Origin: Candidatus Binatia bacterium
GTDB taxonomy: Bacteria; Desulfobacterota; Binatia; UBA1149; JAJCZL01
NCBI GenBank assembly: GCA_028278325.1
Contig: JANQEO010000361.1
Coordinates: 202 to 64,201 of the forward strand
DNA: 64,000 nt
Reading direction: 5' to 3'
Made by a program: the position numbers and the translations under genes. Below, piece after piece: positions 6,661-33,371 of the stretch. Numbering within the stretch: position 1 is the stretch's first letter; the number at the start of each line of letters is the position of its first letter. The notes under the pieces are model-generated. The model did no database searches. It had not been told where the DNA came from and worked only from the letters and a program-made list of their open reading frames with translations.

Positions 6661-8535
6661 ATGTGTGGCATCACCGGCATCTGGCGACGCAAGGTCGGGC
6701 CCGCAGACCTTCAGGGTGAGCTGGAAGAGTCGGTCGCATCCATGCGCCATCGCGGTCCGGACGACAACGGCATCTGGCAGAATGCCTCCGGGCTAGGGTT
6801 CGGATTCACACGCTTGTCGATTCTGGACCTGTCGGAACTCGGCCACCAGCCGATGATTTCTCCGGACGGACGTTACGTGCTCGTATTCAACGGCGAAGTC
6901 TATAACTTCGCCGAGATCCGCAGGGACCTTGTCGGCCTCGGACACAATTTCGCCGGCAGCGGGGATACCGAAGTAATCCTGCACGCCCTTGCGGAATGGG
7001 GCTCACAAGCTGTCGAGCGGTTTGTCGGCATGTTCGCATTTGCTATTTGGGATGAGCGCGAGCAGCGACTCGAACTGGTACGCGACCGCGCGGGCGTCAA
7101 GCCTCTGCACTACGGCTGGGACGGCGAGACGCTGTGTTTTGGATCCGAGTTGAAAGCGCTGCGAGCTTACCGGCACTGGCGCCCGGAGGTCGACCGGCAG
7201 GCACTGGGTGAATTTCTGCAATACGGCTATGTCGCCGGCGACCGCACGATCTACCGGGGTATCCGCAAGCTCGAGCCGGGACATCGGCTCGTCCTCGAAG
7301 CCGGCGGAGAACCGCGTCTGGAGCGCTACTGGTCCGTGGACGACGCAGTGCGGGATGCCGCGACGGGCAGCGATGCCGATCTCGAAGCGGAGCTCGAAGC
7401 CCTGCTCATCGAATCCTGCCGCCTGCGCATGGTCTCGGATGTGCCGGTCGGCGTGTTCTTGTCGGGCGGCGTCGATTCGTCGCTGGTCACCGCGCTGCTC
7501 GCCAAACACCACGACAGGGAGATCCGCACCTTCACTATCGGCTTTGGCGCGGACAGCCACGACGAATCGCAATGGGCAAAGAAGGTCGCCGATCACTGCG
7601 GTACGCGGCATACCGAGTACATATTGAGCAGCGACGAAGGCCTCTCGATTGCCAAGGATTGGGGCTCGCTGTTCGATGAACCGTTCGGCGACCCCTCCGG
7701 TATCCCGACACTGCTGGTCTCGAGGCTCGCGCGCGAGCAGGTGAAGGTCGTGTTGTCGGCCGACGGCGGCGACGAGTTGTTCAGCGGTTATCGTGTCTAC
7801 GACAGCGTGCTGGAAAGGATGCAGAGTCTGTCTCGTGTGCCCCGCTGGCTGGGCACCGCTGCTGCCGGCGCAACATCAAGTCTCCTCCCCGCTCTTTCCG
7901 GTCGGATCTCCGAGCGGCGGCACCGTCAGCTGCGCCATTTCGGGCAGATGATGGCAAGCCCGACTCCGGGCCGGGTCATGGACATCCGGCTATCGCACTG
8001 GCAACCCGCGGACGTGGACCGCCTGATCGACGGCTATCGGCCACTGCGTCCCCTGGCCGACGACTATCCGGGCCGCGCCGATCAGCAGATGAGCTTGTGG
8101 GATATTCACCACTACCTTCCCGAGGATATCCTGACCAAGGTGGACCGAACGACGATGGCGGTGAGCATGGAAGGGCGTGAACCCCTGCTCGATCATCGCC
8201 TGATGGAATTCGCGCTAGCACTGCCGCTGCATCTCCGGCGCGGCGAACTGGGGCCGAAACACCTGCTGAAGCGGATTCTGCACAGGCACGTGGCCCGCGA
8301 GCTGGTCGATCGCCCCAAGCAGGGTTTCGGCATTCCGCTGGATGACTGGTTGAAACGGGATCTCAGACCGCTGGTGCAGGAATACCTGGCGGCGGATCGA
8401 ATTCGCAACGCGGGCCTGTTCGACCCTGCGACCGTCCGCGAGACAGTCGAGGCTTTCTACCATGGACGGGCGACGCAGAGTACGCCGCTTTGGTTCCTTT
8501 TGGCCTTCGAGATGTGGCGCGAACAGTGGGGCTGA
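6661..8535 (+). CDS. asnB: Asparagine synthase (glutamine-hydrolysing)-family amidotransferase, of the type associated with EPS loci
   Basis: The N-terminal MCGITGIW carries the Ntn catalytic Cys2. VGVFLSGGVDSS is the PP-loop. The length is 624 aa. Amidotransferases of this type are known companions of XrtA/PEP-CTERM EPS loci. Confidence 0.9.
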   Translation: MCGITGIWRRKVGPADLQGELEESVASMRHRGPDDNGIWQNASGLGFGFTRLSILDLSELGHQPMISPDGRYVLVFNGEVYNFAEIRRDLVGLGHNFAGSGDTEVILHALAEWGSQAVERFVGMFAFAIWDEREQRLELVRDRAGVKPLHYGWDGETLCFGSELKALRAYRHWRPEVDRQALGEFLQYGYVAGDRTIYRGIRKLEPGHRLVLEAGGEPRLERYWSVDDAVRDAATGSDADLEAELEALLIESCRLRMVSDVPVGVFLSGGVDSSLVTALLAKHHDREIRTFTIGFGADSHDESQWAKKVADHCGTRHTEYILSSDEGLSIAKDWGSLFDEPFGDPSGIPTLLVSRLAREQVKVVLSADGGDELFSGYRVYDSVLERMQSLSRVPRWLGTAAAGATSSLLPALSGRISERRHRQLRHFGQMMASPTPGRVMDIRLSHWQPADVDRLIDGYRPLRPLADDYPGRADQQMSLWDIHHYLPEDILTKVDRTTMAVSMEGREPLLDHRLMEFALALPLHLRRGELGPKHLLKRILHRHVARELVDRPKQGFGIPLDDWLKRDLRPLVQEYLAADRIRNAGLFDPATVRETVEAFYHGRATQSTPLWFLLAFEMWREQWG

Positions 8536-8548
8536 GCCCGGACGATCG

Positions 8549-9679
8549 TCAACTGCGAAACAGCGTCTTGTAGCCAAGCAACATGCTTTCGAATCGGAAT
8601 CGCTGGATGACCCGTTCTCGCGCGGCATAGCCTATTCGCCGTCGCAGAGACGGGGAGTCGTAGAGCTCGGAGAGAATTCGGGTCAACGCGTCGCAGTCTC
8701 CGGATTCGAACAGGAATCCGCTCTCACGATTCTCGACCATCTCGCTGGCACCGCCGATGTTGCTCAGCACAACCGGTCTCTCAAGGGACATAGCCTCCAG
8801 TGCTGCGTTAGAAAACGTCTCGACGGCGCGAGATGGCAACACGAACATGTCCATGGCCGAAAGTGCGGGCCTGACGTCAGATAGCACCCCGGCGAACACC
8901 ACTTTGTCAGACAATCCCGATTGCTGCGCAACGGCTGCCAGTGCAGGTTTCTCGGCACCTTCCCCCACAAGTAGTAGGTACGCGTCGCGGCCGGCGTCGT
9001 TCAGTGCCGCGACCGCACGGATCAGCAACGCGAAGTCCTTTTCCGGCGCCAGCCGCCCAACGCCGCCGACCACCACGACTCCATCGGGAATCGAGAGGTC
9101 GGCACGAAAGGCCCTTGAACTCGCATCCGATATTTCGGGCGAAAAGCGCTCCACGTCCACGCCGTTGTAGATGAACGAGGATCTCTCCGCGCTAAGCCGG
9201 TACTTACGAGTCCAGGTCTGCAGCTGAGCCTCGCATCCGAAGACAATACGATCGCAACGGCGAAGGAACGGCGCGTACAAGTGTCCCCATATCCACTGCC
9301 CGTCGACGAACTCGGTGGTATTGACCATGGCGACCGCCCTGCCTCGTTTCGGCCGCCGATGCCGCGCGGCCGGCAGCACGTAGAGCACGGGATAGAAGTT
9401 GATCGAGACGAGCGTGTCGTAATCTTTGTCGGCAAGCCGCCTCAGACGCCTAAGGCTGTTCGTCGAGTACTTGCTGCGACGCTGCAGATTGTAGACAGGC
9501 ACGTCCGCGTCGATTCGTTCCAGCAGCGTCTCAGGCGGGTTCAGGTAAGCAATTCCTATCGGAAACCCTTGCCGATTCAGTGCGTTAGCAATACTAACGA
9601 TCTTCGTTTCGGAACCGCCAACTTCCAATGTTCCCAGCACAAACAGTACAGACGGCTCGCCTGTCATTCCTCTCACCAA
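8549..9679 (-). CDS. Glycosyltransferase family 4
   Basis: The product contains VLFVLGTLEVGGSE near the N-terminus and FVLPSRAVETFSNAALEAMSLERPVVLSNIGGASEMV as the E-x7-E region. The ATG at 9667 is an alternative start. Confidence 0.85.
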   Translation of the reverse strand: MVRGMTGEPSVLFVLGTLEVGGSETKIVSIANALNRQGFPIGIAYLNPPETLLERIDADVPVYNLQRRSKYSTNSLRRLRRLADKDYDTLVSINFYPVLYVLPAARHRRPKRGRAVAMVNTTEFVDGQWIWGHLYAPFLRRCDRIVFGCEAQLQTWTRKYRLSAERSSFIYNGVDVERFSPEISDASSRAFRADLSIPDGVVVVGGVGRLAPEKDFALLIRAVAALNDAGRDAYLLLVGEGAEKPALAAVAQQSGLSDKVVFAGVLSDVRPALSAMDMFVLPSRAVETFSNAALEAMSLERPVVLSNIGGASEMVENRESGFLFESGDCDALTRILSELYDSPSLRRRIGYAARERVIQRFRFESMLLGYKTLFRS

Positions 9680-9709: not shown

Positions 9710-10864
9710 CTAAACACGGTGGTTTCTGGCATCCGCCATCAGCGCCGCCAGCAGCGACTCGTACCGATTGAGCACAGAGGCGGGCGCGTGGTGTCGCTCC
9801 GCATATGCCTTGCCCCGTCGTTCCCACTCCGATCGCGTCGCAGCATCGGCCGTTAGCGAGTCCAGGGTCCCAACCATCTCCGCAGGCGTATCCACCCGAA
9901 TACCCACTGGATCGCCATTCAGCCGCGCGCCGCTGTCGATGAAGGAAACCGTTGCCCTGCCACGCGCCCATGCCTGCAGAAACGTGTTCGGGAAGCCCTC
10001 GCTATCAGATGTATTGACGAACAGCATTGCATTGTCGAAATAGTGTCCGATCTCTGCGTACGGAACGAAGCCCTCGAAACGCAGATTCGGCAACGTGGCT
10101 GCACGCGAGCTCACCTGCTCGTAGAGAGCGCCTTCGCCGATGCTCGGGCCACCGACCATCACGAATTTAAGGTCCGGCAGTGCCTCCACGATGTCCAGGA
10201 AGACGTCCGGGCGCTTTACCTGTCGTATCATGCCGACCCACAGCACGTACGTACCGTGGGTACGGGCCGAGTTCGACCCTGCCGGTTGCATGTTCGGGAT
10301 CAGCTCGCTGCCGCGTCCGAACTCCTCAAGAACGTGGTTTGCCTGTTCTTCGGACTGCACGACGACCCGATCCACGTGCCGGGCACCGTAGCGAAACAAC
10401 CAGCGGTCGCGCCAGAAGCGAATCTTGGTCCGTCCTGCGACCGCGAACACAGACTTCCTGCGGTGCCGACGGCAAAAGGCCGCCGTCACGCCGGTCAGCA
10501 TGCTGGCAGCTCGCTGGTAATAGATGTCGGCATCGGCGAGTTTCATACTTCGCCAAAGACCGGCCAGCCTCGGCCAAAAAAACCGCAGCACCGGCAGGCC
10601 CGCGTCCGGGCGAAATGCGCGATGGACGGTAACGCCGTCAATCGTGCACGCTTCCGGCTGTCCGTAGTCGAGACAAATCATGCTCACCGGGTAGCCTCGT
10701 TCCGCCAAGCCCTTGGCGATTATCACCTGCTGCAATTCGGCGCCGCCGGCGAAGCGGATGGACGAGTCTTGCGCCAGCAGCGGATAGGCATGGGGTGCGA
10801 CGAAACACACGCTCGGTCGGCGACCGGCCGACGCTTGCCGTGCGCCAGCCCCGGCGCTTGTCAT
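9710..10864 (-). CDS. Glycosyltransferase family 4
   Basis: The product contains VCFVAPHAYPLL...GGAELQ at the N-terminus and FVNTSDSEGFPNTFLQAWARG in the C-terminal region. An ATGA start/stop overlap with the upstream gene lies at 10861-10864. Confidence 0.8.
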   Translation of the reverse strand: MTSAGAGARQASAGRRPSVCFVAPHAYPLLAQDSSIRFAGGAELQQVIIAKGLAERGYPVSMICLDYGQPEACTIDGVTVHRAFRPDAGLPVLRFFWPRLAGLWRSMKLADADIYYQRAASMLTGVTAAFCRRHRRKSVFAVAGRTKIRFWRDRWLFRYGARHVDRVVVQSEEQANHVLEEFGRGSELIPNMQPAGSNSARTHGTYVLWVGMIRQVKRPDVFLDIVEALPDLKFVMVGGPSIGEGALYEQVSSRAATLPNLRFEGFVPYAEIGHYFDNAMLFVNTSDSEGFPNTFLQAWARGRATVSFIDSGARLNGDPVGIRVDTPAEMVGTLDSLTADAATRSEWERRGKAYAERHHAPASVLNRYESLLAALMADARNHRV

Positions 10865-12180
10865 GAATGCCGGCTCGATTGGTAGTTGGCGGCCCGGATT
10901 GGCCCGCCTTGATGATGCATAACCGGCATCGGTGCATCGGTACGCGGCATCGCCTGATCCGCTAGGCTATTGACGGCAACTCGCATGCCGACTCCCATGT
11001 ATGCCCAGAGCAAGTATGCGGAGGTATTGTATTCAGAGAACACGATTGCGATCAGGAACCCTAGTAACCCAAAGATTAGAGCGAATAGCAGTTTCCCTTC
11101 CTCCTCGCCAAACGCGGGCCGAAGCGCACGCCTTGCAATGACCAGGATACGTGCGAACACCGACAGAAATAGCACCACGCCGATAGCTCCGAGGTTGTAC
11201 AAATAGAGCAAGTACATATTGTGCGGGGAGCGAAAGAACCTACCAGTCTCGTAGGCGTGGAAACCGAAACCCGTGAGGAAGGACAGAGGACTCTCGACCA
11301 TGGGCCGTAAAAGGGTTGCCCAGATCGTCGACCGGCCACTCGTCACGGCGTGACTGCCTCCACCGACGTTAGTCACGCGTTCAACGTACACCTCCGCATA
11401 TCCGGTTATGAACGTCACCGCAATCACAACAGCGACAACGAACATAGCGGCGGCGCCCGCCCGCACGACAACCCGCGTCGGAATGTAGCGGCGGAGAAAG
11501 ACCGCCGCAACAATCGAACCTACCAGCAAACCGGTGTAGGCGCCGCGAGAACCGGTCAGCACCAGCGCCACGATTGTCGATAACGCGCCAATGGCCGCCA
11601 GCAATCTGACATAGCCACGGTTAGAGGAAAGGAGCACCACGCTCCCTGGAACAAACAGCGCCAGAAACTGCCCGTAGCTATTCGGTTGGCCCAAAAAGCC
11701 CTCGAACCGACCGGCCTTCCTCGGCGTATCCAGGATACCAAGATTGGGTACGTTGAACGTGTCGACAATCGTGATGAAATTGCCAAGGACCACGATCCAA
11801 ATCGTCGCACGCATCAGCCACACGGCATCCCCAAGACGACTCATCCCGTAGAAGAAGATCAAAAAAGTTACGAGCTGGTCGATCAATGCACTCTTCAACG
11901 CGATTCCCGAAGCGCTCATACTGTAGTGCGGATTCGAGACGACGAATGCCAGTACGATCCATGAGAGCAAGGCGTACAGAACGAGCAACACAAAGGGAAT
12001 CACAATGGAAGGCAATTCGAAATCGCGATTGCGGGCGACCGCCGCCTCGACCGCAATACCAGCGAAAATGACATACAGCAAGAGATTCTTGGCACTTACG
12101 CCAGGCACCAGGCCCAAGTTGATCCCAAGGTCGTCGCCCATGTAGAGGAAAAAAAAGAAAAAAGCCATCAGGTAGCGCAT
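10861..12180 (-). CDS. O-antigen ligase/polymerase-like (Wzy_C-type) integral membrane protein
   Basis: The 439 aa product has about 10 or more hydrophobic segments. A central loop reads LVLTGSRGAYTGLLVGSIV...TSGRSTIW, which is typical of the Wzy_C / O-antigen ligase family. Confidence 0.8.
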   Translation of the reverse strand: MRYLMAFFFFFLYMGDDLGINLGLVPGVSAKNLLLYVIFAGIAVEAAVARNRDFELPSIVIPFVLLVLYALLSWIVLAFVVSNPHYSMSASGIALKSALIDQLVTFLIFFYGMSRLGDAVWLMRATIWIVVLGNFITIVDTFNVPNLGILDTPRKAGRFEGFLGQPNSYGQFLALFVPGSVVLLSSNRGYVRLLAAIGALSTIVALVLTGSRGAYTGLLVGSIVAAVFLRRYIPTRVVVRAGAAAMFVVAVVIAVTFITGYAEVYVERVTNVGGGSHAVTSGRSTIWATLLRPMVESPLSFLTGFGFHAYETGRFFRSPHNMYLLYLYNLGAIGVVLFLSVFARILVIARRALRPAFGEEEGKLLFALIFGLLGFLIAIVFSEYNTSAYLLWAYMGVGMRVAVNSLADQAMPRTDAPMPVMHHQGGPIRAANYQSSRHS

Positions 12181-12222: not shown

Positions 12223-13167
12223 TCAGTTAACGATCTTCTCAACCGTGTACTCTTTTATGTCTCTCGCGTGCGTGAAGATGATCAGCTCGCCGAGCAAACC
12301 AAGCGCGAAGATCTGCAGGCCCAGTACGACCATTAACGAAGTCAGCAGCAGGGCCGGCCGGTCTGCCAGCGAAACACCGAAAAACAGCCGCTGCACGACA
12401 AGGTAGGCAAGAATCGCCCCGCCGACCGCGAACACGATGCTCCCGATCGTACCGAAAAAACGCAGTGGTTTCTTGGTGAAGCGCGTGAGGAACACGATGG
12501 CCAAAATGTCGAGCAGACGCGCAGCGTAATCCTTCACTCCGTGCCTGTCGTATATCAGCCCCTGCTCCGCTTCGCGCACAGGTACTTCTCTGACACGGAA
12601 GCCGCGCCGCGTTGCCAGCAGCGGAAAGAAACGATATTGGTCGCCGTAAATCGGCAGCTCGTCCGCGACGCTGCGTTTGAAGGCCCGTAGACCGCAACCG
12701 AGGTCGCGGAAGGATTGCCCGGTCGCGATTCGGACCAGCGAATGAAACAGCTTTCGCCGACCCTTCTTGAAGCGCGACACCGCTTCCTGATGAGGCTCGC
12801 GGACCCCCGCAGCGAAATCGCATCCGTCCAGCTCGTCGATGACTTTGGCTACGTCCGCCACATGGATCTGGGCGTAGGCCGGCAGTGTTACAACCGTGTT
12901 ACCCGAGCTCATCGCAAATCCCGCGGTCAGCGCGGTAGCCTCGCCGAAGTTCTTGGCCAGTTGCACTATGCGCAGTCGCCCGTCCTCGGCCGCGATTCCC
13001 CTGAGCTGTTCCAGCATTGCCGCGTGCTCGCCGTCGAGCACGTACACGAGTTCGAACGGTTTGCCGATGCCCTCGAAGATCTCTATATAGCGACGGGCAA
13101 GGTCGCCCGTTTTGTCGAGTAACTTGACAACCGGCACTATCGCCGAAATTTCCACACGCTCACTCAT
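12223..13167 (-). CDS. GT2 (GtrB/DPM1/ArnC-like) polyprenyl-phosphate glycosyltransferase paralogue lacking the canonical DXD
   Basis: The architecture matches the neighbouring GT2: a GT-A domain plus two C-terminal TM helices (FGTIGSIVFAVGGAILAYL, LLLTSLMVVLGLQIFALGLLGE). It has VLDGEHA where the neighbour has VDDGSVD. It has VTLPAYAQIHV where the neighbour has VTMDGDLQNDP. Confidence 0.8.
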   Translation of the reverse strand: MSERVEISAIVPVVKLLDKTGDLARRYIEIFEGIGKPFELVYVLDGEHAAMLEQLRGIAAEDGRLRIVQLAKNFGEATALTAGFAMSSGNTVVTLPAYAQIHVADVAKVIDELDGCDFAAGVREPHQEAVSRFKKGRRKLFHSLVRIATGQSFRDLGCGLRAFKRSVADELPIYGDQYRFFPLLATRRGFRVREVPVREAEQGLIYDRHGVKDYAARLLDILAIVFLTRFTKKPLRFFGTIGSIVFAVGGAILAYLVVQRLFFGVSLADRPALLLTSLMVVLGLQIFALGLLGELIIFTHARDIKEYTVEKIVN

Positions 13168-14168
13168 TGCGGCCCTTCCGCTCCTTTGCTGGCGCGCCTG
13201 CGGGCCTCACCTGACGGGTGGAACTCCCTGGCTGTAAGCAGCCGGGTAGCCGTCACGTCAAGATTGCCGGTGCGCTTGATGAGCTCTGCGAGCCCGCCGG
13301 TGAATACCAGGAAAATGCAGAGGATGCCGAAAAAGACGCCGGTGCCCGAAATCGGCAGTGACCCCTGCGTGCCCATGAGAAGGAGTCCAATCTGCCAGAC
13401 CAGTATCATGCAGGACAGCAAGAAAAACGGCAGAGCGAGCAGAGCAAACCACGTCAATGGGCGCTCAGCGAATCCCGAGACCATGCGGATGGTGAGTAAG
13501 TCAAACAGCACCTTGTAAACACGTGACAGGCCGTACTTGGACGAGCCGAACTGGCGTGCATGGTGGCGGACCTTGATCTCGGCCAATCTGGGGCCCGCCA
13601 TTGACGCCATCGCCGGAATAAAGCGGTGCATTTCACTGTAGAGCGGTACGTTCTTGATGACATTGGCACGGAAGCCCTTCAGCGAGCAGCCGTTGTCCTT
13701 GATCGGTACCCCGGTCACCTTGCCGATGATCCAGTTGGCGATGCGTGACGGAATCTTGCGTGAGATCAGCTTGTCCTGCCGGTTGAAGCGCCAACCCACG
13801 ACGATGTCGTAACCCTCGTCGAGCTTGTCGACAAAATGACGGATGTCGGCGGGATCATTCTGCAGGTCGCCATCCATCGTAACAATGTACTCTCCCCGGG
13901 CGAGGTCTATTCCGGCAGCCATGGCGGGCGTCTGGCCGTAATTGCGCCGAAACTTCACGACCCGAAGCCTCGGATCCTCTGCGGCCAACGCCTCTGCCCG
14001 GGCAAACGTAGCATCGACGCTACCGTCGTCCACGAATACAATCTCAGACCACCGGGAGATGCCTTCGAGCGAGCGGTCTATAGCCTCGTATAGCGGCCTC
14101 ACGCTATCCTGTTCATTGTAGAGTGGGACAACGACCGATAGATCCACGGTTCCTTTACTGGATTGCAT
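13164..14168 (-). CDS. GT2 (GtrB/DPM1/ArnC-like) polyprenyl-phosphate glycosyltransferase
   Basis: The product contains VVVPLYNEQDS, VFVDDGSVDAT, NYGQTPA, VTMDGDLQNDP and two C-terminal TM helices. An ATGA overlap with the downstream paralogue lies at 13164-13167. Confidence 0.85.
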   Translation of the reverse strand: MQSSKGTVDLSVVVPLYNEQDSVRPLYEAIDRSLEGISRWSEIVFVDDGSVDATFARAEALAAEDPRLRVVKFRRNYGQTPAMAAGIDLARGEYIVTMDGDLQNDPADIRHFVDKLDEGYDIVVGWRFNRQDKLISRKIPSRIANWIIGKVTGVPIKDNGCSLKGFRANVIKNVPLYSEMHRFIPAMASMAGPRLAEIKVRHHARQFGSSKYGLSRVYKVLFDLLTIRMVSGFAERPLTWFALLALPFFLLSCMILVWQIGLLLMGTQGSLPISGTGVFFGILCIFLVFTGGLAELIKRTGNLDVTATRLLTAREFHPSGEARRRASKGAEGPQ

Positions 14169-14891
14169 GCTGAATGAACGCGTCTAGTCTGTCAGTTGTT
14201 TGGAAGAATAGCAGGGCTGTTGCTCGGTTTTCCGACCCGTATCAATGCACGATGCCACAGTAGCAAGGATACTCACTGTCTACCCGGTCACATAGTGAAC
14301 TGTTAAAGCCGTCATCCGGCAAATCGACTCGGCAAATCAGCGATTCACCACGAGCCGATTTACGGGTGACAGCCCTAGTACTTTCGATATCCTGTGAGCT
14401 CAAACGGGGAGTCTCTCGTCCGTAACGCTTTGCCCCCCCATGCGCCATCCCACGCTCGTCGTCCCGCAACGACCGGTGCATACCTCGTCGAAAACCAAAG
14501 CCCCGACAATTTCAGACATGTTGCCCGTACTGCCGCGTTAGATGTCCCCTAGACTCCGGCAGCTAGCTGCAGTCGCGATCGCGAAACCAGCTTACTCAGT
14601 CAGCGGACGTACAACCAATTCTCCTGCGTCGATCTGAGGCGCAACTCTGAAAGACATGCGATTCTCGAGTATGAACGAATAGTTCCTTCTGTACGTCGGC
14701 TACCTCTTGCAGCCAATCTTTGACGCGACCGATCCAGAGATAGCCCGCTGCAACTCGTATTCCGACTCCTTATCGAATACAAGGCGAGTCGCTAGACTCC
14801 CGACTTATGGCGGACGTCTTGTTCTCTTGTTGGTGCTCCAGTCTTCTCAAGAATTGGAGCCTCCGAGAACTCCTGGATCGTACATAGTACG

Positions 14892-15620
14892 CTATTGTCG
14901 GAACTCCTTGTTCTTGACTCGTTCATACATCTGGAAGTCCCTGCGCATAAACTCTTTCAAGTCAGCGAGGAGCGCAGGAGACAGTTCATCTGCAAAGTTT
15001 TCCCCAGACCGAAAACGGTTCGCTCCGACCGTCCGGATGACCCTTCGTTTCGCAAAGTCCACCAACGCCTGCACTCGGCCAGCATTCGCCTGGACTGGCG
15101 AGGGATTCCTGTACGATACCGTCAGAGATTCACCGATTTTCTCGCTCATGTACTCGGCGAACTCATCAATATGTTCATAAAGAAAAATCGAGTCAACGCC
15201 TATTTGATCATCCTCATCCTTAACGAAGTCAAACTGGGGCCTGAACGATGCGTATGCCGGTGGATTTACGGACATATAGTCCTCGACAAACCTCGCAAAT
15301 GACATTCCGTAAGTGCTCGTCCCGTAACTCGGGTGGCTCGGGTTCCTGATTGCCAGCCGTGATCGAAACCGAAAGTGGCTATTTAGCCAGGACAACGGTT
15401 CCCGGACTAGACAGACCGTCTCCAGCGGCCGTTCTCCAATACTCTCTCGCAGGTACGGCCTGAGATACTGACTGAATGTCCTATAGCTTGTATGTCGCAG
15501 CGAGGGTTGACCACCCAAGACGACATTACAGTAGGGTAGCAATGCTGCTTCTATGGAGTTCGATGCGCATTTGGGTACCAGGATTAGCGCAAAGTTGAAT
15601 TCGGTGCTCACAAGCATCAC
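14892..15620 (-). CDS. Sulfotransferase family 2-like protein
   Basis: FALILVPKCASNSIEAAL resembles the PK(x)(G/A)S(T/S)S 5'-PSB loop. VCLVREPLSWLNSHFRF resembles the R-x-P-x-x-R/W-x-x-S 3'-PB motif. The gene lies in the low-GC island. Confidence 0.55.
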   Translation of the reverse strand: MMLVSTEFNFALILVPKCASNSIEAALLPYCNVVLGGQPSLRHTSYRTFSQYLRPYLRESIGERPLETVCLVREPLSWLNSHFRFRSRLAIRNPSHPSYGTSTYGMSFARFVEDYMSVNPPAYASFRPQFDFVKDEDDQIGVDSIFLYEHIDEFAEYMSEKIGESLTVSYRNPSPVQANAGRVQALVDFAKRRVIRTVGANRFRSGENFADELSPALLADLKEFMRRDFQMYERVKNKEFRQ

Positions 15621-16046
15621 ATTAGCCCAGCGAATAAATTCGTTCGATTCGGTCCACGCGGAATACGCCTAATCACGCGATCATTGATCGCTGTACAACT
15701 TCAATGCACTGCTGTATTCGATCCCATATCGCTACCTTGCGACGCAATCTTGGAGGATCTCGAAGGTCTGTGACAGAACACACTGTTGCGGCCTGACCCG
15801 CGTACCAGCTCTAGTGATTTCCAGGACTATACGTACCACGCGAACTATGCTCCAAGCTGCTGTTGTCATAATCTACAAAAGGCTGTGTGGTTGCTGATTG
15901 GAGTAGTGACGTCGCCAGGCGCAGACCTCGTCACGCGCATGCTTAGAGGCAGCTAAGGAAATGCTGCTTGAGAAACGGGTATTGAAAGCTAGCATCGAGC
16001 TCGAAAACGAATGCACTCCAGCCAGAGTACCGAAAAGTGCCAAGTC

Positions 16047-17996
16047 TCATCTGGAAGGTTCTGGCAGGCGTGAATAACGCCACACGCGAGTCGCTCCGTC
16101 ACGGCCAAGGAAAACTTCTTGGAAGCCGACCGCTTCCATAGTACTCCAGATTCCATCGCCGTAGTATCGCATCAGGTTGCCCTCGAGCTCCCCACTACCG
16201 ATAACAAGGACCTGCTTCCCACGGAACTCGGACAAGATGTTCCTCAGCATACTGCCCGACCAAATCTGAGGGACACCGGTATAGAGGTTAAGCATTCGAC
16301 CCTCCCGCATGAATGAAGAGTTTCTGCTTGTATTCAAGGAGCGCATGTAGTAGTCGATTCGGTCTCCAAGGTAGTAGACCTGCTGTTGTGTATCAACTGC
16401 AATGACAATGTCATCTTGGTCCAAGTGCTGTGCCAATACGAACTCCGCAGCACCTTTATGGTCCACTCCGCGATGCCCCGTCAGGCGAGGGAAATCTTCG
16501 TGCCGTGCATTTACGTTGTACCAGAAATCAGAGGGATTCACGAAGGCCAGAAGTACAATGATAGCAGCAGCTATGTAAGCAGCTCTAGGGAATCCAGGCA
16601 GTCGATCGCCAATGCGGTCGAACACTTCCACAACGGCGGCAAGAAGAGCGAGCAGAAACAGCGGCAAGAAACCGATGACGTAGCGGCTCGGAATGTACTG
16701 ACCAGCCAAGAACCCCATGAGGAGGAGGGGAGCGAAAACCGCCATCAAAAAGAACAGCATGTGGTCCGACACAGAGCTACCGCGGCTGAACTGCACAGCA
16801 AGATAGCTAAAGACCAGCCCGTAGATTATGACGCCAAGAGGAGAGTACCTGCTGAAGGAAAGATAGGTTTTTGGATAAGGCGTGCCTGCGAGAGACTCGA
16901 TCAAATCATTGATACTCTGCACTTCCGGGGACTGCCACAGCAGACGAGCGTGTACTACGAACAGCACTGCCAACAGTCCGCCGAGAGCTATCGGAACCTT
17001 CACTGAGCAACCGGCCCGAACGAAGAAAGCCGTTCCGAGCAGGAAGAACAAGCCCGCCAGGTGGTACTGCACGAGAACCCCAAACGTCACAGAGAACCCA
17101 AGGCAGACGACTGCAAGAAGGAGCCAAGTCGTTCCGACGACCGCCAGCTTCCGAATTCTCGCAATCACCAGGGCGGCGCCCGCCGCGAGCGCGGCCCCCA
17201 ACATGCCGACCATCATCGAAGCCAAGTCGATGGGAATAGCCAGCATACCTCCCGGCTCATCTTCCATCGGCGACTGGCGCTCCACCAGCGGAAAGTACTG
17301 CGAACCGATCCACTCGCTGAGCTGGCGCTCAACGAGCACGCAAGCCAAGAAGGCAACCCCACCGGCCAAGAGCATTGGCAAGGATCTTCTCACCAAGCCC
17401 GGGAAAAAGAAGAGCGGAATAGAAAACACGGCGAGGGCATGAAAAGACACCGCGAAGAGCGCAGCAGCAATTGACGAGAGAAAGGAGACGATGGATTTGG
17501 TACGCTCCCACCAAAACAGAGTTACCCCAAACAGCATGATGCAGGTAACGTAAACGCCGTACATCCTGGCCGTCTGGCTATGCTCGATCATGCAGGGTAG
17601 CAACGCAAATACAACGGCGAAGAAGAGTGCCCAGTACACGGACAAGAAACGCCTAGCGAGCCAAAATGCGATGAAGATACCGATACTACCGACAAGTGCT
17701 GAAGGCAGGCGCAGTGCCCATTCGGTGTCCCCGAATACTGACGTCGAAACAGACATCATCAGGAGCTGCGGCAGTGCACGAACATAGTGCATGCCACTCG
17801 GAAGGGTCGGAGATTGCGTCTCGACGAGTGCACGCGTTGCGAGCGCCATAACGTCTTCGTCGCCATGCAGGCCCAGCGTCCCCAGACCCCAGAATCGCAA
17901 GAAAGCTCCGCCAACAACGACGGCACCAAGCAGTGCCCAGTGCTGGATTAACATCTGATCCTCTGGAAAGGACTCAGACCATAGGGATCCCTTCAC
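16047..17996 (-). CDS. GT-C fold glycosyltransferase (ArnT/PMT_2, GT39/GT83-like) using a polyprenyl-phosphate-sugar donor
   Basis: The 649 aa product has about 12 or more TM segments. The N-terminal loop is RFWGLGTLGLHGDEDVMALATRAL (DE/DD motif), followed by GDTEWALRLPSALVGSIGIFIAFWLARR. There is a soluble C-terminal domain. Confidence 0.72.
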   Translation of the reverse strand: MKGSLWSESFPEDQMLIQHWALLGAVVVGGAFLRFWGLGTLGLHGDEDVMALATRALVETQSPTLPSGMHYVRALPQLLMMSVSTSVFGDTEWALRLPSALVGSIGIFIAFWLARRFLSVYWALFFAVVFALLPCMIEHSQTARMYGVYVTCIMLFGVTLFWWERTKSIVSFLSSIAAALFAVSFHALAVFSIPLFFFPGLVRRSLPMLLAGGVAFLACVLVERQLSEWIGSQYFPLVERQSPMEDEPGGMLAIPIDLASMMVGMLGAALAAGAALVIARIRKLAVVGTTWLLLAVVCLGFSVTFGVLVQYHLAGLFFLLGTAFFVRAGCSVKVPIALGGLLAVLFVVHARLLWQSPEVQSINDLIESLAGTPYPKTYLSFSRYSPLGVIIYGLVFSYLAVQFSRGSSVSDHMLFFLMAVFAPLLLMGFLAGQYIPSRYVIGFLPLFLLALLAAVVEVFDRIGDRLPGFPRAAYIAAAIIVLLAFVNPSDFWYNVNARHEDFPRLTGHRGVDHKGAAEFVLAQHLDQDDIVIAVDTQQQVYYLGDRIDYYMRSLNTSRNSSFMREGRMLNLYTGVPQIWSGSMLRNILSEFRGKQVLVIGSGELEGNLMRYYGDGIWSTMEAVGFQEVFLGRDGATRVWRYSRLPEPSR

Positions 17997-18463: not shown

Positions 18464-19909
18464 CTAGTCTTGAAGTGTGGGCGGTTTCGGCCGGGGCGGT
18501 TCATTTCTCGGAACATCGGACACTATCGGCACATCCGAGTCTGCCGGCACATCCGAGACCGCAGTGCCTTCGACCTCCGCCGCCATAGCTTGTAACCACT
18601 CTTCGACGTTGGTGTACCCATCGCCGTCACTGTCACCATTGGGATCCGACGGAACACTAAGGTTTCGGGTGTTTCTCGCATAGTTCGGCCATCCGCCTGC
18701 GTTCGCAGCGCAACGACTAGTACCGTTGTTGGCAACGCAGTTGATAATCCGACCGGTCCGATTTCTGATATCCGCTATTACTCGTGCATCTACGGCGTTC
18801 CTTTCCGCCGGCCTGGTTCCGGCATTACTCAATACATAGTCCAACGCTCGACCATCGCGGGTGGGACGCACGTCGAGTCCGTCTGTCCATGTAGGCGGGA
18901 CATCTGACACAAAGGTATTCAATGATCGATTCGTACGATTTTCCACGATTGACCACTGATCTGTGCCCATACTTGTCGCCGTGTTGTCAGACAAGTACAC
19001 GCGGCTACTGCTGAGCATCGCGTTTGACCCGTCACCATCCCTTTCACCGAGGATTCGGATTGGTACTGAGGATGCACGCGTATCAGGGCCGTCGATAAAT
19101 ACGTTGCCAACTATGGTATTTCTCGATGATATGCCATGTCTGTTGTACAGCATGACCTGCGCGGTCTCGGTATTGTAAATAACATTGTTGACGAAGACGA
19201 AATCGGAAGCGTTTGTCCTCGGATTTCTCGCATCGTTGTGTGCGAAGATATTGCCGATCATCGCAATACGACTGCGATCTGAATTTGTACTTAGCAGTGC
19301 ACCGTACGAGTGTGCACCTTTGGGATGGATTGACTCGTTCAGAGCTTCGGAAATAATGGAATTTGAAATGGTCACATTGTCCCACGCCCGGTAGGTCGAA
19401 ATGCCCTCGTCAACCGACCAGCTTATGGAGCAGTGATCGATAACGGCGTTTCGAATCGGGTTCGGCGTCTCGATCTTCAGTGTGTCTCGGACACGGGGAT
19501 CGAGGCCACCCGGGTCGTCACCAACTCGGACGGCAATGTGTTGCACCAGAACGTCCGACGCCCGGATGGCGAGAGGAGCTCCGCGAAGCAGAATTCCCGG
19601 TGCAGGGGCTGTTTGTCCAGCAATAGTCAGGTTGGGGTTGCTGACGGTGAGACCAGACGACAAACGGATGACGCCAGATACCTCGAAGATGCAAATACGA
19701 GGCCCTGATGCTGAAACACAGGCCCGCAATGAGCCACTACCATCGTCATTCAGGTTTGTGACCCGGATGATCGAACCGCCTCGGCCGGCGGGTGTAGTCA
19801 TTCCGAACCCGTGTGCACCGGGAATCACTGGCAGATCTGCCAACACGTTCCCGCACAACAGCCCGGTAGTCAATGTAACTATGAACTTCCCACTCAGTTT
19901 GCCAAGCAT
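18464..19909 (-). CDS. Secreted pectate-lyase-like right-handed beta-helix protein with a C-terminal Ca-binding-type (TSP3/dockerin-like) motif
   Basis: The probable start is the ATG at 19909, giving the signal-like MLGKLSGKFIVTLTTGLLCGNVLA; the ORF itself extends to 20056. The product contains GFGMTTPAGRGGSIIRVTNLNDDGSGSLR, a PL1-like N-terminus. It has many N/I/V-rich beta-helix turns. The tail reads DPNGDSDGDGYTNVEEWLQ, followed by an SDVP x3 repeat. Confidence 0.7.
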   Translation of the reverse strand: MLGKLSGKFIVTLTTGLLCGNVLADLPVIPGAHGFGMTTPAGRGGSIIRVTNLNDDGSGSLRACVSASGPRICIFEVSGVIRLSSGLTVSNPNLTIAGQTAPAPGILLRGAPLAIRASDVLVQHIAVRVGDDPGGLDPRVRDTLKIETPNPIRNAVIDHCSISWSVDEGISTYRAWDNVTISNSIISEALNESIHPKGAHSYGALLSTNSDRSRIAMIGNIFAHNDARNPRTNASDFVFVNNVIYNTETAQVMLYNRHGISSRNTIVGNVFIDGPDTRASSVPIRILGERDGDGSNAMLSSSRVYLSDNTATSMGTDQWSIVENRTNRSLNTFVSDVPPTWTDGLDVRPTRDGRALDYVLSNAGTRPAERNAVDARVIADIRNRTGRIINCVANNGTSRCAANAGGWPNYARNTRNLSVPSDPNGDSDGDGYTNVEEWLQAMAAEVEGTAVSDVPADSDVPIVSDVPRNEPPRPKPPTLQD

Positions 19910-20442
19910 CTTGCTTACCCCACATCGTCGTAATGAATTCAACATCGGACTCCATTGGTAGAGCACTGCACCAGTCAGCGAAGCGATGGCGAAACCACGA
20001 AGATGCATCGGCCAACTGGCCGAAGCAAGAGTACCGAGACGTGGCAACCCCGCCATCTTAGGAAGCTAATCCCCTTAGACCGGTGGCTTTGCGTCCTTGC
20101 CTTTCGACAAGTATGCCTTTCGCACGAGAGCATGCTGACACGCTGTTTCTTGAATTGTCAAACGACAAATCCCGATATTTGCCAAAGCCGACAGTTGATA
20201 ATCCCGCCCAAGGTCTACTGACACGTGCTAGCAGCACGTATCGCTGAAATTATGGTGAATTCGGAGACGCCCGTCGCATAGCAGTGCTGCAACTGAGTCA
20301 GAAGAATGGCATACCGTTGCGCCAGATGGAAACTGTCGTCATTGTGCGACAACCAATATTCAGGCCAGTCCGGCAAAACGCCTTTAGGGCCATAATGTGT
20401 GAGACATACAGCGGCATCCAATCCGCTTTCTGGTCGCTAGTG

Positions 20443-21339: not shown

Positions 21340-22461
21340 TCAATTATCCAGTATAGACCGCGTCTTGCGATAACGGCGCTTTAAGCCTGCACCGATCAGC
21401 TCGAGCTCAAACCGCAGCTTTCGCTTCTGAACTTTGGCCCAGATCAGCCTGTTCCGATCCGTGGAAAGAGACCGCTTGTACTGACCGCCGCCGGCGAGAA
21501 AGTCGTAGGCCTTCAGATTGCTTTTTGCGTTGAATCGAACGGCCTCAGCGTGACACAGCCAACCCGGTTTCATCTTCCCGTCCTCACTGTAGACGAGCCC
21601 CCCCTGGTAGAACAGGACCCTGCCGTTGAACACGAAATTGTACAGGCAGCCAACCGTGTGATCGCCGGCCGTGACCCGCAGCAACTGGATTTCTCCGCTG
21701 TCGAAGCGGTTGCGGATCAGCGCCGTGTGGAAGGACAGGGAGTACTGCCGACTGAAAGCGCCCTCGACACCCCTGTGGTCCCAGCGCTCCCTGTGAAGCT
21801 CGACGAGCTCATCAAACATCTCCAACGCCCGGTCGGCGTTCGCTGCAACTTCGCACTCAATAGCGCCGTTCTTCGAGTAGGCTTCGTAGCACCGCCGCAT
21901 TTGTCGACGAGTATTGCTGCTCAATAGACTTGCGTAGTCACCCTCCTTCTCGCGAACGGCCTCCAGGTTCACGTAAGGTGAGGGATCGTCGCGCACGACC
22001 ACCGGCCGCCAGCGCGGTGGGCACCGGCTGATCAGCGAATCCGCCACTGCATCCACCGCATGGCCCGGAAAGACGAATTCGTCCCAGGATTCCGTTCGAT
22101 CGAGCTCCTCCAGCACGTCCCAGATCCTTTCGGGCGGAGTCCCTTTCATGAGTACCTGGTTGTACTCGATCGACAGTCGATCGATCTCCGGTACTCCCGT
22201 GGCGTTGACGAAGACCGAGCGGACGGGGATGACCCGCTTCCGCCACAGGCCGCGGATTCCCGCGAAGAAGGCGAGCACCGGTGACCCGTCGAGGTACCCG
22301 ACCACCAGCTTCAGGGCGACCTCGCGAGGCAAGGAATCGAGCCAAGTCTCGACCCAGCCGGGGGACAGGAAGTAGTCTACCTCGAGCTCGCTGGTCAGTT
22401 CGTTCCAGATTTCGCGAATCTGCTCTCGATCGGTGTGCGCGTCCAGGAAGTGTAGTTTCAT
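21340..22461 (-). CDS. FemAB/CelD-like (BioF2-like, Acetyltransf_6-type) acyltransferase
   Basis: The preferred start is the ATG at 22461, preceded by AGGA; the ORF extends to 22548. The C-terminal segment reads LFYQGGLVYSEDGKMKPGWLCHAEAVRFNAKSNLKAYDFLAGGGQYKRSLS. This matches the SpG...D(F/L)(L/G)xGxxxYK signature shared with the 30487 and 32271 genes. Confidence 0.7.
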   Translation of the reverse strand: MKLHFLDAHTDREQIREIWNELTSELEVDYFLSPGWVETWLDSLPREVALKLVVGYLDGSPVLAFFAGIRGLWRKRVIPVRSVFVNATGVPEIDRLSIEYNQVLMKGTPPERIWDVLEELDRTESWDEFVFPGHAVDAVADSLISRCPPRWRPVVVRDDPSPYVNLEAVREKEGDYASLLSSNTRRQMRRCYEAYSKNGAIECEVAANADRALEMFDELVELHRERWDHRGVEGAFSRQYSLSFHTALIRNRFDSGEIQLLRVTAGDHTVGCLYNFVFNGRVLFYQGGLVYSEDGKMKPGWLCHAEAVRFNAKSNLKAYDFLAGGGQYKRSLSTDRNRLIWAKVQKRKLRFELELIGAGLKRRYRKTRSILDN

Positions 22462-22592
22462 TGTATCCTGCTGACTGCCTGGCGGGATGCCCCGACCGGC
22501 ATCCGCATCCTGCCCCGCGCCGCCCTCTACGTCCTTGAATTGAATCACATTCGACTATCAGGAATCTGCGACCCGCGGCGGAATCCCGTCGA

Positions 22593-30486: not shown

Positions 30487-32262
30487 GTGGGTCGGGTCAC
30501 CTACGTGCGTTATCTCCGGCATGAGGACGCGCGCGCCATCGCGCGACTCGAGCGCAGGGCCTATCCCCGCGACCAGCGGAACGGCCGTCGCGAGATCGCC
30601 GCAGACCTCAGAGAGGCCGAGCTCGACGGCACGAACCTGTCTGTCGGGGTGTTCGAAGGTACACGTCTCACCGGCTGTATCCTCGCGTTCCTGCGCAAAG
30701 ACCGGCCCGCGCTGTTCGAGGAATTCGAGGTCCGGCTCGATACCGCGTCCGACCTCGACGGCGCCTGTATCTACGTCGAAGACATCATCGTTCGGCCCGG
30801 CTTCCGACGCTGCGCCTTTCTGATGAACGCCAAATGGCAGCGGGAGCTGACGCTACACGCAGCCGGTCTACCCATGGACGCCTTCTGTACACCGGAGGTG
30901 CGCGAGCGCTGGAAGGCACACGGACGCTTGTTCAGCCGCAAGGGACTCGCACTCGACCGCGAGATGAAGGTCCGCGATCTGACCGGCAAGCAGGACTGGT
31001 ACTGGATGAGCTGGCGCCCGGCCGCCGACGGGCTGCCGCCAGAGCAATCGTCAGAGCAATTGCCGGGGCGGCCAGGCAAGCGGCTAGAGCAGGCCGCACT
31101 GCCGCCCGGCTACGAGGCCCGCCTGATGAATACGGCGGCGGAGTGGGCGCGGGTTCGCGAGGTCTGGGACGAGCTCGTCGACAAAATGCCCGAGGCCAGC
31201 GGCTTCCTCGGCTACGACTTCCTCTCGACCTGGTGGCGCCACAACGGCATGTCCCGGCATCTGGTCCTGCTCGGACTGTACCGCGACGGCCGTGCCGTCG
31301 GATTCGCACCGCTGATGCTGGCACCGAAGCGCATTCTTGGCGTGTATCGCTGGCGCCTGGAGTTCATCGGCGATCAGGTGAATATGGAACGGCCGGACCT
31401 CGTCGTCGACCCCGACGAGCCCGATGCGCGCAGGCTTTTATGGCGCGCCGCGATGAGCACGGCGTCGAAATGGGATGCCGCCTATTTGCGCGAGCAGACC
31501 AAACGGCCCGCCGATCATCCGGTGGCGCAGGAAATCGATGGCCAGCGGTTCTCCTTGTCCCGCTCAACGGGCATGGACTCTCCGCACGTGGTCGTAAGCA
31601 AGGATTGGGACGGCTATCTGGCGACACGGTCGCGCACGCTGCGCAAAGGATACAGACGCAAGCTTCGGCAGCTGGAACGCCTGGGCGAGTTCCGCTACGC
31701 GGGATACGACGGTCTTCAGAACGGCGACGATTGCCTGAACGCCTATCTGGACGTCGAATCCAGGAGCTGGAAGCGCGCCGGCAAGGTCGGCATTGGCAAC
31801 AACCGCTTCCGCCTGGCCTTCTACAGAGCTCTGGTCGCCTCCCTGGCGCCGTCCGGCCGTATTCGCTTCCGGTTCCTGACGATCGACGACAAGGCGATCG
31901 CCGCAACCTTCGGCGTGTTCCAACGAGGCCGCTTCGCGTCGCTGGAGATCTGCCACGATCAGGCCTACGACAGGTATTCGCCCGGCGTCGTCCTGACGGG
32001 CCTCGAGCTCGAGGAATGCCATCAATCGGGAGCCTACACGGACTACGACTTCCTGATCGGCACGTACAACAACAAAACCACCTGGGGAACGGACGCCCAC
32101 CGCGCCTGGCACCTGTACATCCTGCCGCGCACGCCCTGGGGCTGGTTGAATCGCTGGCTGATCTTCACGGTCAAGCCGGCCGTGAACCGGCTCATCGAGC
32201 GCTTCGACCTTCGGGACACGGTTGATCGCTGGCGCGGCAGGATCGAAGGCTATCTGCGCTGA
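30487..32262 (+). CDS. Two-domain acyltransferase with an N-terminal GNAT and a C-terminal FemAB/CelD-like (Acetyltransf_6-type) domain
   Basis: The N-terminal part contains IYVEDIIVRPGFRRCAF, which is GNAT motif A-like. The C-terminal part contains ESRSWKRAGKVG...IAATFGVFQRGRFASLEICHDQAYDRYSPGVVLTGLELEECHQSGAYTDYDFLIGTYNNKTTW. Confidence 0.65.
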   Translation: MGRVTYVRYLRHEDARAIARLERRAYPRDQRNGRREIAADLREAELDGTNLSVGVFEGTRLTGCILAFLRKDRPALFEEFEVRLDTASDLDGACIYVEDIIVRPGFRRCAFLMNAKWQRELTLHAAGLPMDAFCTPEVRERWKAHGRLFSRKGLALDREMKVRDLTGKQDWYWMSWRPAADGLPPEQSSEQLPGRPGKRLEQAALPPGYEARLMNTAAEWARVREVWDELVDKMPEASGFLGYDFLSTWWRHNGMSRHLVLLGLYRDGRAVGFAPLMLAPKRILGVYRWRLEFIGDQVNMERPDLVVDPDEPDARRLLWRAAMSTASKWDAAYLREQTKRPADHPVAQEIDGQRFSLSRSTGMDSPHVVVSKDWDGYLATRSRTLRKGYRRKLRQLERLGEFRYAGYDGLQNGDDCLNAYLDVESRSWKRAGKVGIGNNRFRLAFYRALVASLAPSGRIRFRFLTIDDKAIAATFGVFQRGRFASLEICHDQAYDRYSPGVVLTGLELEECHQSGAYTDYDFLIGTYNNKTTWGTDAHRAWHLYILPRTPWGWLNRWLIFTVKPAVNRLIERFDLRDTVDRWRGRIEGYLR

Positions 32263-32270: not shown

Positions 32271-33371
32271 ATGACGTCGCAAGATGAATCCGCGGAAATC
32301 GTCACCGATCTCGAGGGCTGGGCGGCGCTGAAAGAGGCCTGGGCCAGGTGCCTGTCTTCGGCGCCAGGGGCAACGGCCTTTCAGAGCCATGAGTTTCTGC
32401 GCTGCTGGTGGGATCACTTCGGCGGCGACCAGACGCCCTTTGTGCTCGCCCTGCGCGAGACCGACCGGGTCCTCGGGATTGCGCCGCTGCAGCTCGTCAG
32501 GCGCCGGATCCTGGGCAGGCAGTACCGGGTGCTCGAGTTCATGGGCATGCCGGACGAACTGGACCGGCCGCAGTTCCTGGTCGGCGAGAACGACCGGACG
32601 ACGCTCGAGGGTCTGCTGGACGCCCTTGCCGCGCATCGAGACTGGGACATGATCCGGCTCGATGAACTGCCTGCCGAGAGCTGGCAACTGCCCGTGCTCG
32701 AGGCCTGGGCCGAGCGAAACGACTTCCGTTTCCGCAGTGAGCCGCTGCACCCGGTCCCCTTTCTCGTCAAGGGCGGCGACTGGAACTGGTACGTCGCGCA
32801 ACGTTCCCGGCGATTCGCCAAACGACTGCGGGAGACGGAGAGAAGGCTCGCCAGGGACTACAGCGTGAGCTATCGCTGGTGCCACGGCGGCGAAGCGTCG
32901 AAAGCGCTGCTCGAGGACTTCCTTGCCGTCGAATACAACAGCTGGAAGGCCTACGAAGGATTCGACGTCGGCGTCGAGCAGGCGTACCGGACCTTTTACG
33001 AGGATTTGCTGTGCCGCGAGTCAGAGGCGCTGCACGGCCATGTGCTGGTGCAGTACCTCGACGCAAACCCGAGCGCGGCGACGCTGGCGTTCAGCAGCGA
33101 AGGCGTTTACTACTCCCTACAGATTGCTCACGACAAAGCCTACGAGCGCTACTCTCCGGGCACGTTGCTCGAAGCCGTCGAGATGCGCTGGTTCTTCGAA
33201 CAGGACTGGCTGCGTCGCTACGAGTTCCTCGGCGGCGGCGGCGGCAACAAGGAGCGATGGACGAAGACCTCGGTCGACACCCGCACCGTCATCATTCGCA
33301 GACGCAGCAAGCGTCTGGCCCTCGGCGACCTCTCCGGCAGGTTTCTCCGCCCGATATTCGCACCGGAGTGA
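32271..33371 (+). CDS. FemAB/CelD-like (Acetyltransf_6-type) acyltransferase
   Basis: The product contains EYNSWKAYEG...ATLAFSSEGVYYSLQIAHDKAYERYSPGTLLEAVEMRWFFEQDWLRRYEFLGGGGGNKERW. This is the same signature as the 30487 C-terminal domain and the 21340 gene. Confidence 0.7.
   Translation: MTSQDESAEIVTDLEGWAALKEAWARCLSSAPGATAFQSHEFLRCWWDHFGGDQTPFVLALRETDRVLGIAPLQLVRRRILGRQYRVLEFMGMPDELDRPQFLVGENDRTTLEGLLDALAAHRDWDMIRLDELPAESWQLPVLEAWAERNDFRFRSEPLHPVPFLVKGGDWNWYVAQRSRRFAKRLRETERRLARDYSVSYRWCHGGEASKALLEDFLAVEYNSWKAYEGFDVGVEQAYRTFYEDLLCRESEALHGHVLVQYLDANPSAATLAFSSEGVYYSLQIAHDKAYERYSPGTLLEAVEMRWFFEQDWLRRYEFLGGGGGNKERWTKTSVDTRTVIIRRRSKRLALGDLSGRFLRPIFAPE

Follow-up and report, generated by a model that had tools for sequence, protein, structure and literature searches.

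An ArnC/GtrB-type glycosyltransferase gene paired with a DxD-less paralogue in a Binatia exopolysaccharide locus

The overlapping genes A and B

The window analysed here, a 64,000-nucleotide stretch of DNA from Candidatus Binatia bacterium, carries two adjacent genes on the minus strand, which are called A and B. Gene A (13164–14168) encodes an intact ArnC/GtrB-type polyprenyl-phosphate glycosyltransferase of 334 residues, with matches to PF00535 (E 4.4e-29) and to the ArnC structure 9bhc (E 2.8e-46). Gene B (12223–13167) encodes a paralogue of 314 residues that has the full ArnC-like fold and no DxD motif; it matches PF00535 with E 7.4e-11 and ArnC (9hwj) with E 1.7e-36 over residues 6–313. 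The stop codon of A (TGA) and the start codon of B (ATG) overlap in the four bases ATGA (13164–13167, minus strand), an overlap that the original prediction had placed correctly and that points to translational coupling. A purine-rich sequence, AAGGAGCGGAAGG, lies inside A, 6–18 nucleotides 5' of the start codon of B. The two proteins are 30% identical over 255 residues (E 3e-38), and the PF00535 score of B is 42.7 bits versus 102 bits for A.

By sequence, both proteins match the same structures, namely ArnC (8vxh, 9bhc and 9hwj) and GtrB (5ekp and the entries beginning with 9ny). The best NCBIfam model for both is the ArnC equivalog NF007986, with scores of 175 bits (A) and 129.5 bits (B) against a cut-off of 529. 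As these scores are far under the cut-off, neither protein is an ArnC orthologue. The HMMER alignment to ArnC residues 10–300 gives A a GT-A domain followed by juxtamembrane helices and two transmembrane (TM) helices. Structures were predicted with AlphaFold2 as single chains. The model of A has a predicted local distance difference test score (pLDDT) of 87 and a predicted template modelling score (pTM) of 0.81, with helices at residues 215–235, 237–264 and 271–300; the corresponding scores for B are 92 and 0.85. Both models have the same architecture, with a GT-A domain, one juxtamembrane helix and two long helices, and the structures closest to the B model in Foldseek are ArnC (template modelling score 0.77) and GtrB (0.74). 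The family matches and the models agree with the earlier description of both genes as GtrB/ArnC-like, with a GT-A domain and C-terminal TM helices. The C-terminal tail KEYTVEKIVN is kept in B, as is the conserved membrane core; the tail of A is variable among orthologues and has a pLDDT below 55.

Electron cryo-microscopy of ArnC and GtrB has shown that the metal is bound by the second Asp of the DxD motif together with a Gln, and that the first Asp is a candidate base. The uridine diphosphate (UDP) moiety is contacted by D48, N77, R205, S210 and K211, and a 'universally conserved' arginine (R128 in ArnC, R122 in GtrB) holds the headgroup of undecaprenyl phosphate (Und-P) (PMC12690121, PMC12698845). 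Protein A carries D47, D48, S50, D52, D99, D101, Q103, R205, S210 and K211, and all 17 positions that are invariant in the catalytic family are present in it. Its motifs read VFVDDGSVD and TMDGDLQNDP. The second of these (codons at 13851–13880, minus strand) is aligned to ArnC 98-TLDADLQNPP and contains the DxD as D99/D101 and the metal ligand Q103. At the aligned positions B reads VYVLDGEHA and TLPAYAQIHV. The codons for L95-P96-A97-Y98-A99-Q100 of B (12868–12885, minus strand) stand in place of the DxDLQ of the catalytic relatives, and those for V43-L44-D45-G46 (13030–13041, minus strand) in place of VDDG, such that B retains only the second of the two Asp residues.

The placement of these residues does not depend on one method. 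HMMER against ArnC, MAFFT and the profile–profile comparison by hhalign (probability 100%) all put P96 and Y98 on the two DxD aspartates free of gaps, and L44-D45 on the D-D of DDGS without gaps nearby. The acidic residue nearest to P96–Y98 is D105, seven residues on and in the next helix. The original prediction had held that the DxD motif is absent from B, to be checked by alignment to ArnC and GtrB; all three alignments put P-A-Y there, and B has no acidic residue within six positions.

Among the positions that are invariant in 26 catalytic sequences, the B clade has lost D47 (replaced by V or L), S50, D52, D99 (replaced by P) and D101 (replaced by Y), and R205, S210 and K211 have no counterpart in it. 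Of the nucleotide contacts of ArnC (D47/D48, N77, R205, S210 and K211), B keeps only the equivalent of D48, which is D45; the rest are substituted, variable or without counterpart. In total, A retains all the ArnC/GtrB residues with published roles, and B retains only the equivalents of D48, the Gln and R128. The residue corresponding to R128, R123 in B, is invariant in 52 of 52 diverse members of the clade, as is D155, while Q100 is found in 47 of the 52. The juxtamembrane and TM region of the same 52 members is also invariant at P234, F238, G239, G290 and E294. These substitutions indicate that B has lost the canonical metal and nucleotide-sugar site and has kept the lipid-phosphate arginine and the membrane core.

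The B clade and its partners

The motif that replaces the DxD is itself conserved. In the 120 nearest homologues of B, which are 57–71% identical to it and come mostly from sediment Woeseiaceae-like bacteria, LPAYAQ has its P in 119, its A in 118, its Y in 119 and its Q in 120. In the 52 diverse members the P is kept in 39, the Y in 38 and the Q in 47. Searches returned thousands of B-related sequences; in the best 150 from an exhaustive search of 50%-identity cluster representatives, the DxD is absent from 115 of the 145 informative rows, which mostly read L-P-x-Y-x-Q-[VI]. Where the search outputs carried names, members of the B clade were called merely 'glycosyltransferase'. The hallmarks of the clade, all of which are found in B, are L-P-x-Y-x-Q in place of DxDLQ, a membrane core of RFTxKPLRFFG and GLIGExIIFTH, monophyly, and an A-clade gene directly upstream.

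In a maximum-likelihood tree, a single branch with a Shimodaira–Hasegawa approximate likelihood-ratio (SH-aLRT) support of 100 separates all 31 DxD-less sequences from the others. All 15 partner sequences form a clade of their own (SH-aLRT 99–100), which is sister to the stand-alone canonical enzymes. Because both groups are monophyletic with SH-aLRT values of 99–100, each of clades A and B has a single origin. Recent erosion of B in this genome was considered and is ruled out by the motif kept in 119 of 120 close homologues and by the depth of the clade. The original prediction spoke of a lost DxD motif. The motif is indeed absent, but this is not a simple loss, since a large monophyletic family has long had a conserved L-P-x-Y-x-Q in its place, and the conservation of this replacement suggests that the pocket of B is still under selection.

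Closer to the window, the pair is rare: in 40 relatives and 300 sampled genomes of the class, a B-type gene was found only in the genome of the window itself. The idea that B is common among the relatives was rejected, as the next-best matches (290–303 bits) are stand-alone canonical enzymes with DDGS and DxD. The genome itself has a stand-alone canonical ArnC-like gene outside the window (contig C369, 10136–11143), whose product shows the motifs VDDGS and TMDGDLQNDP, has its C-terminal hairpin intact and shares 51% identity with A across the GT-A domain. Since this copy groups with the canonical sequences nearest to the A clade, it likely represents the ancestral state.

Pairing was counted from the B side, at loci chosen for a B gene: the window, six species-genome loci, eight look-ups of distant representatives and 70 metagenomic loci. 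An intact A-clade gene lies immediately upstream of B in all 85 informative loci. The six species-genome loci (6/6) belong to Woeseiaceae, Steroidobacteraceae and another gammaproteobacterium. The distant cluster representatives, which are 30–54% identical to B, have the upstream gene in 8/8 informative cases, including the cultured Thiogranum longum; one of these pairs sits on a contig with genes of the type IX secretion system (T9SS) type. The metagenome scan used an alignment of the closer relatives of B, and all 70 loci with room upstream have the intact gene, 69 of them found by script and one (L054) by inspection. The DxD is present in 55 of 55 full-length metagenomic partners, and the upstream partners show the motifs VDDGS and DGDLQND. 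At the 14 other A–B junctions that were read by eye, the spacing is between −16 and +11 nucleotides, often with ATGA or GTGA. Conservation of the degenerate paralogue beside an intact one in other genomes, which the original prediction had proposed as a check, is thus borne out.

The most informative new result of the analysis is that the two proteins are constrained in complementary parts. We compared the GT-A domain with the juxtamembrane, TM and C-terminal part in 13 matched A–B pairs, which give 78 genome pairs. Orthologues of A are 60.6% identical in the GT-A domain and 35.2% in the juxtamembrane, TM and C-terminal part. For orthologues of B the values are 40.2% and 53.7%, and for stand-alone canonical enzymes they are 46% and 36%. 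Both inequalities are true in 77 of the 78 genome pairs, and in 36 of 36 when the close Woeseiaceae are left out. Among the stand-alone enzymes, 200 of 210 pairs show higher conservation in the GT-A domain than in the membrane part. The pattern of B is the opposite of that in A and in the stand-alone enzymes; selection in B is thus inverted, with the membrane core foremost and the former catalytic domain least conserved. The membrane part of A, judged by these identities, is unusually free to vary.

Fusions and neighbouring genes

Some homologues of B are fused to other domains. In P0170 (L016, 7001–8986) the B domain is fused C-terminally to an LPG_synthase_TM domain, which is MprF flippase-like, and in P0182 (L017, 7001–9136), P0185 and P0193 it is fused to Acetyltransf_6/FemAB-like domains. 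At the two fusion loci examined, those of P0170 and P0182, an intact A gene lies directly upstream and overlaps the start of the fusion gene. Just upstream in L016 are genes for a CE4 deacetylase, a FemAB-like protein and a DegT aminotransferase, an Arn-like layout. A CE4 deacetylase adjoins B at one locus. At another, L018, a DAO-type flavoenzyme gene (7959–9155) overlaps the end of the B gene and is followed by genes for an SDR epimerase and a methyltransferase. Thiogranum longum has a DAO/DAO_C flavoenzyme (L022, 2834–4534) at a distance of 5 kb, together with an epimerase and a methyltransferase.

A fusion of A to B was also looked for. The candidate, a 633-residue tandem protein (P0121 and P0270), was rejected, as it is an independent lineage among the canonical enzymes. 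Both of its members have two complete GtrB-like modules with four TM helices in one chain. P0121 has the DxD in both modules; the second module of P0270 is degenerate (CDSG, ESD) and fast-evolving. As an independent lineage, it is a parallel instance in which the second of two duplicated copies underwent loss.

No third partner gene common to all loci was found in a tblastn survey and neighbour clustering of 80 loci. The commonest neighbour of the pair is a GT-C-like membrane protein, which follows B in 10 of the 48 metagenomic loci with room downstream. The window has such a gene at 16047–17996 (minus strand), encoding a polytopic protein of 649 residues; its match to PMT_2 (E 5.9e-4) is below the Pfam cut-off, and the assignment also draws on synteny. 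Its orthologues lie directly upstream of A in L002–L004, and a PMT_2 gene precedes A in L013. This protein, for which a sequence search of the PDB gave no match, likely uses the lipid-linked product of A in the periplasm. In four metagenomic loci (L044, 4717–6859, and three others) genes for an ABC-2 (Wzm-like) permease and for a Wzt-like ATPase that has a Wzt_C domain come after the pair, which thus also occurs in ABC-transporter-dependent glycan loci.

Directly downstream of B in the window is a gene for a Wzy_C/O-antigen-ligase-like membrane protein (10861–12180, minus strand; PF04932, E 3.8e-14), and a Wzy_C-like gene holds the same position in the Woeseiaceae loci L001–L004. The window as a whole is a large exopolysaccharide locus of the XrtA/PEP-CTERM type, with a PrsK kinase, an XrtA-type amidotransferase, GT4 enzymes, GDP-mannose/fucose and amino-sugar genes, three Acetyltransf_6 genes, a Wzx-like flippase and an exporter. 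The three Acetyltransf_6 genes (FemAB-like GNAT; 21340–22548, 30487–32262 and 32271–33371) belong to the domain family that is fused to B elsewhere. A PelZ-like pectate lyase gene (18464–20056; E 2.9e-67, far below the equivalog cut-off) lies inside this biosynthetic locus, and copies of it are found upstream of the GT-C-like gene in L002–L004.

The 720-bp gap upstream of A (14169–14891) contains no convincing open reading frame. It is followed by a sulfotransferase-2-like gene (14892–15620) inside a stretch of low G+C content, with 51–54% at 14000–16400 versus 58–64% in the flanking genes. In L002–L004 the gap between the GT-C-like gene and A is merely about 0.3–1.4 kb, so the sulfotransferase gene of the window looks like an insertion. 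No match to the GtrA family (PF04138) was found on the 76.5-kb contig that contains the window (C312), which agrees with the earlier remark that no GtrA-like gene is visible nearby; the two matches in the genome are on contigs C177 and C146. With these two GtrA-like proteins as queries, tblastn gave zero matches at the 80 related loci.

Roles considered for the pair

We propose that B is probably a non-catalytic, lipid-carrier-binding subunit of a hetero-oligomeric synthase formed with A. The physical association of A with B, its stoichiometry and the action of B on the lipid are inferred from the pairing, the coupling and the complementary constraint. In ArnC and GtrB homotetramers, the juxtamembrane helices, the TM helices and the tail form an eight-helix bundle and extend to the neighbouring protomer; TM2, the C-terminal hairpin and the tail touch this adjacent protomer (PMC12690121, PMC12698845). 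B is taken to be the partner subunit of A because it has lost its donor site but not its lipid site, and because of the strict pairing, the single origins, the complementary constraint, the precedent of these tetramers, the fusions and the ATGA coupling.

In the proposed mechanism, A would bind the nucleotide sugar and the metal and move the sugar onto undecaprenyl phosphate at the cytoplasmic face of the membrane. B would be an old paralogue that is incapable of canonical metal and nucleotide-sugar binding and that retains the headgroup arginine, the juxtamembrane and two TM helices, and the C-terminal tail. The two may assemble together, in the simplest case as an A2B2 variant of the ArnC/GtrB tetramer, in which B would provide the conserved core that handles the membrane and the lipid carrier. 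In some lineages B could also dock the next-acting enzymes or a flippase for the lipid-linked sugar, which a GT-C enzyme would then use outside the membrane. The original prediction of a pseudoenzyme partner instead of a second catalyst is supported by the loss of the site, the pairing and the constraint, while the hetero-oligomer and the flippase-like role that it also offered stay at the level of suggestion.

Several points weigh against B as a subunit of this kind. The kinetics of GtrB were taken by its authors to reflect independent protomers (PMC12698845), so a mixed tetramer is not mechanistically required. The full-length, confidently predicted GT-A fold of B, its conserved L-P-x-Y-x-Q and its invariant D155 fit a pocket in which binding or catalysis of some kind persists. 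With A set aside, the neighbourhood of the pair is heterogeneous, and the idea of a 'docking platform' comes from a few fusions. Adjacency in an operon would also be expected for two enzymes of one pathway.

In one alternative, B is an independent enzyme that acts on a polyprenyl-phosphate-linked substrate by non-canonical chemistry without a metal; it might modify or transfer the sugar just attached by A, by means of Y98, Q100, R123 and D155. Metal-independent GT-A enzymes exist, the replacement motif is conserved (P, A and Y in 118–119 and Q in 120 of 120 homologues), R123 and D155 are invariant, and a deep clade has retained the GT-A domain at full length and with a confidently predicted fold. 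However, this domain evolves faster than both the membrane part of B and the GT-A domain of its partner, a pattern reversed in the catalytic relatives. The known nucleotide contacts are lost or variable save for one Asp, and no candidate donor can be named; we regard an independent enzyme as unlikely. The idea that B is a decaying, functionless duplicate, with the missing DxD as a sign of erosion, would fit the absent catalytic motif and the Pfam score of 42.7 bits against 102 for A. It is refuted by the conservation data, as B has an intact frame, thousands of homologues, invariant residues in the membrane core, a single ancient origin and a confident fold.

It is quite unlikely, in our judgement, that B forms an oligomer of its own that translocates or escorts the Und-P-linked sugar across the membrane in place of the missing GtrA-type flippase. 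This role would suit the absence of GtrA-family genes from the contig and of tblastn matches at the 80 related loci, the position of B beside a GT-C gene, where gtrA is found in three-component systems, and the membrane core as the most conserved part of B. Yet in P0170 the B domain is fused to a separate flippase-like MprF domain. Such a fusion would be redundant if B flipped the lipid, and it speaks against B as the flippase. In ArnC and GtrB, each chain contributes two TM helices to a tight bundle, for which no translocation path has been reported (PMC12690121, PMC12698845). GtrA-like genes are present elsewhere in the genome, the window has a Wzx-like flippase, and a generic flippase would need no strict pairing with one specific A clade.

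An extension of the subunit reading is possible, and we put it forward tentatively. The DxD-less clade would comprise widespread, glycosyltransferase-derived subunits for lipid-carrier handling, which make some polyprenyl-phosphate glycosyltransferases obligate hetero-tetramers. Such a subunit would capture Und-P or the nascent Und-P-linked sugar in a metal-free pocket (R123, Y98, Q100 and D155) and hand it to docked or fused editing enzymes or to a flippase. The enzymes concerned may be FemAB-type acyl or aminoacyl transferases, CE4 deacetylases, flavoenzymes and MprF-like flippase domains. If this extension is true, single sugars on the lipid carrier would be made, tailored and exported in a physically channelled way.

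Among known systems, the undecaprenyl-phosphate Ara4FN transferase ArnC (PmrF; 8vxh, 9asc, 9bhc and 9hwj) is the best sequence and fold match of A and B. It shares with them the GT-A domain, two juxtamembrane helices, two TM helices and the C-terminal tail, and its Und-P arginine R128 is conserved in both. It differs in being a homotetramer of four active protomers, whereas B lacks D100/D102 and the UDP contacts. The GtrB of Synechocystis and the phage GtrA-GtrB-GtrC systems are similar in the cytoplasmic synthesis of an Und-P-linked sugar and its use by a GT-C enzyme outside, given that a GT-C-like gene is the commonest neighbour of the pair. Unlike these systems, the window locus has no GtrA and has a DxD-less GtrB paralogue in second position.

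A polyprenyl-phosphate glycosyltransferase with a required non-catalytic membrane partner, which serves in anchoring or activity, is found in DPM1-DPM2-DPM3 of mammals, Ppm1-Ppm2 of mycobacteria and corynebacteria, and GacI-GacJ of Streptococcus pyogenes. In contrast to B, the partners DPM2/3, Ppm2 and GacJ are small membrane proteins unrelated to the enzyme, or an Lnt-like protein, and none is a full-length paralogue that keeps the lipid site. Pairs of a dead paralogue with an active one are known from GtfA-GtfB, which act in the glycosylation of streptococcal serine-rich-repeat proteins, and from EXT1-EXT2. These differ from A and B in fold and family (GT-B, GT47/64), are soluble or in the Golgi, and use no lipid carrier. 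In MprF, an LPG_synthase_TM flippase domain and an aminoacyl-transferase domain together serve to modify and flip a lipid. The same kinds of domain, PF03706 and the FemAB-like GNAT PF13480, are fused to homologues of B; the B of the window is unfused, and the link is through the homologues only.

ArnC, GtrB and dolichyl-phosphate mannose synthase are treated as self-sufficient homo-oligomers, and ArnC is a target for reversing polymyxin resistance. In the literature searched, neither the A–B pairing and the DxD-less clade nor any inactive or heteromeric paralogue of ArnC/GtrB turned up, and we know of no non-catalytic or pseudo-glycosyltransferase partner that is a full-length paralogue within the ArnC/GtrB family. 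The cultured carrier Thiogranum longum makes the question of the role of B experimentally testable. For annotation, members of the B clade should not be counted as second catalysts when glycans are predicted from gene clusters. If the proposed role of B is true, it would be the first paralogous pseudoenzyme subunit in the polyprenyl-phosphate glycosyltransferase family, and it would offer a way to study how these enzymes receive the lipid carrier and how their product is handed over to tailoring enzymes and flippases.

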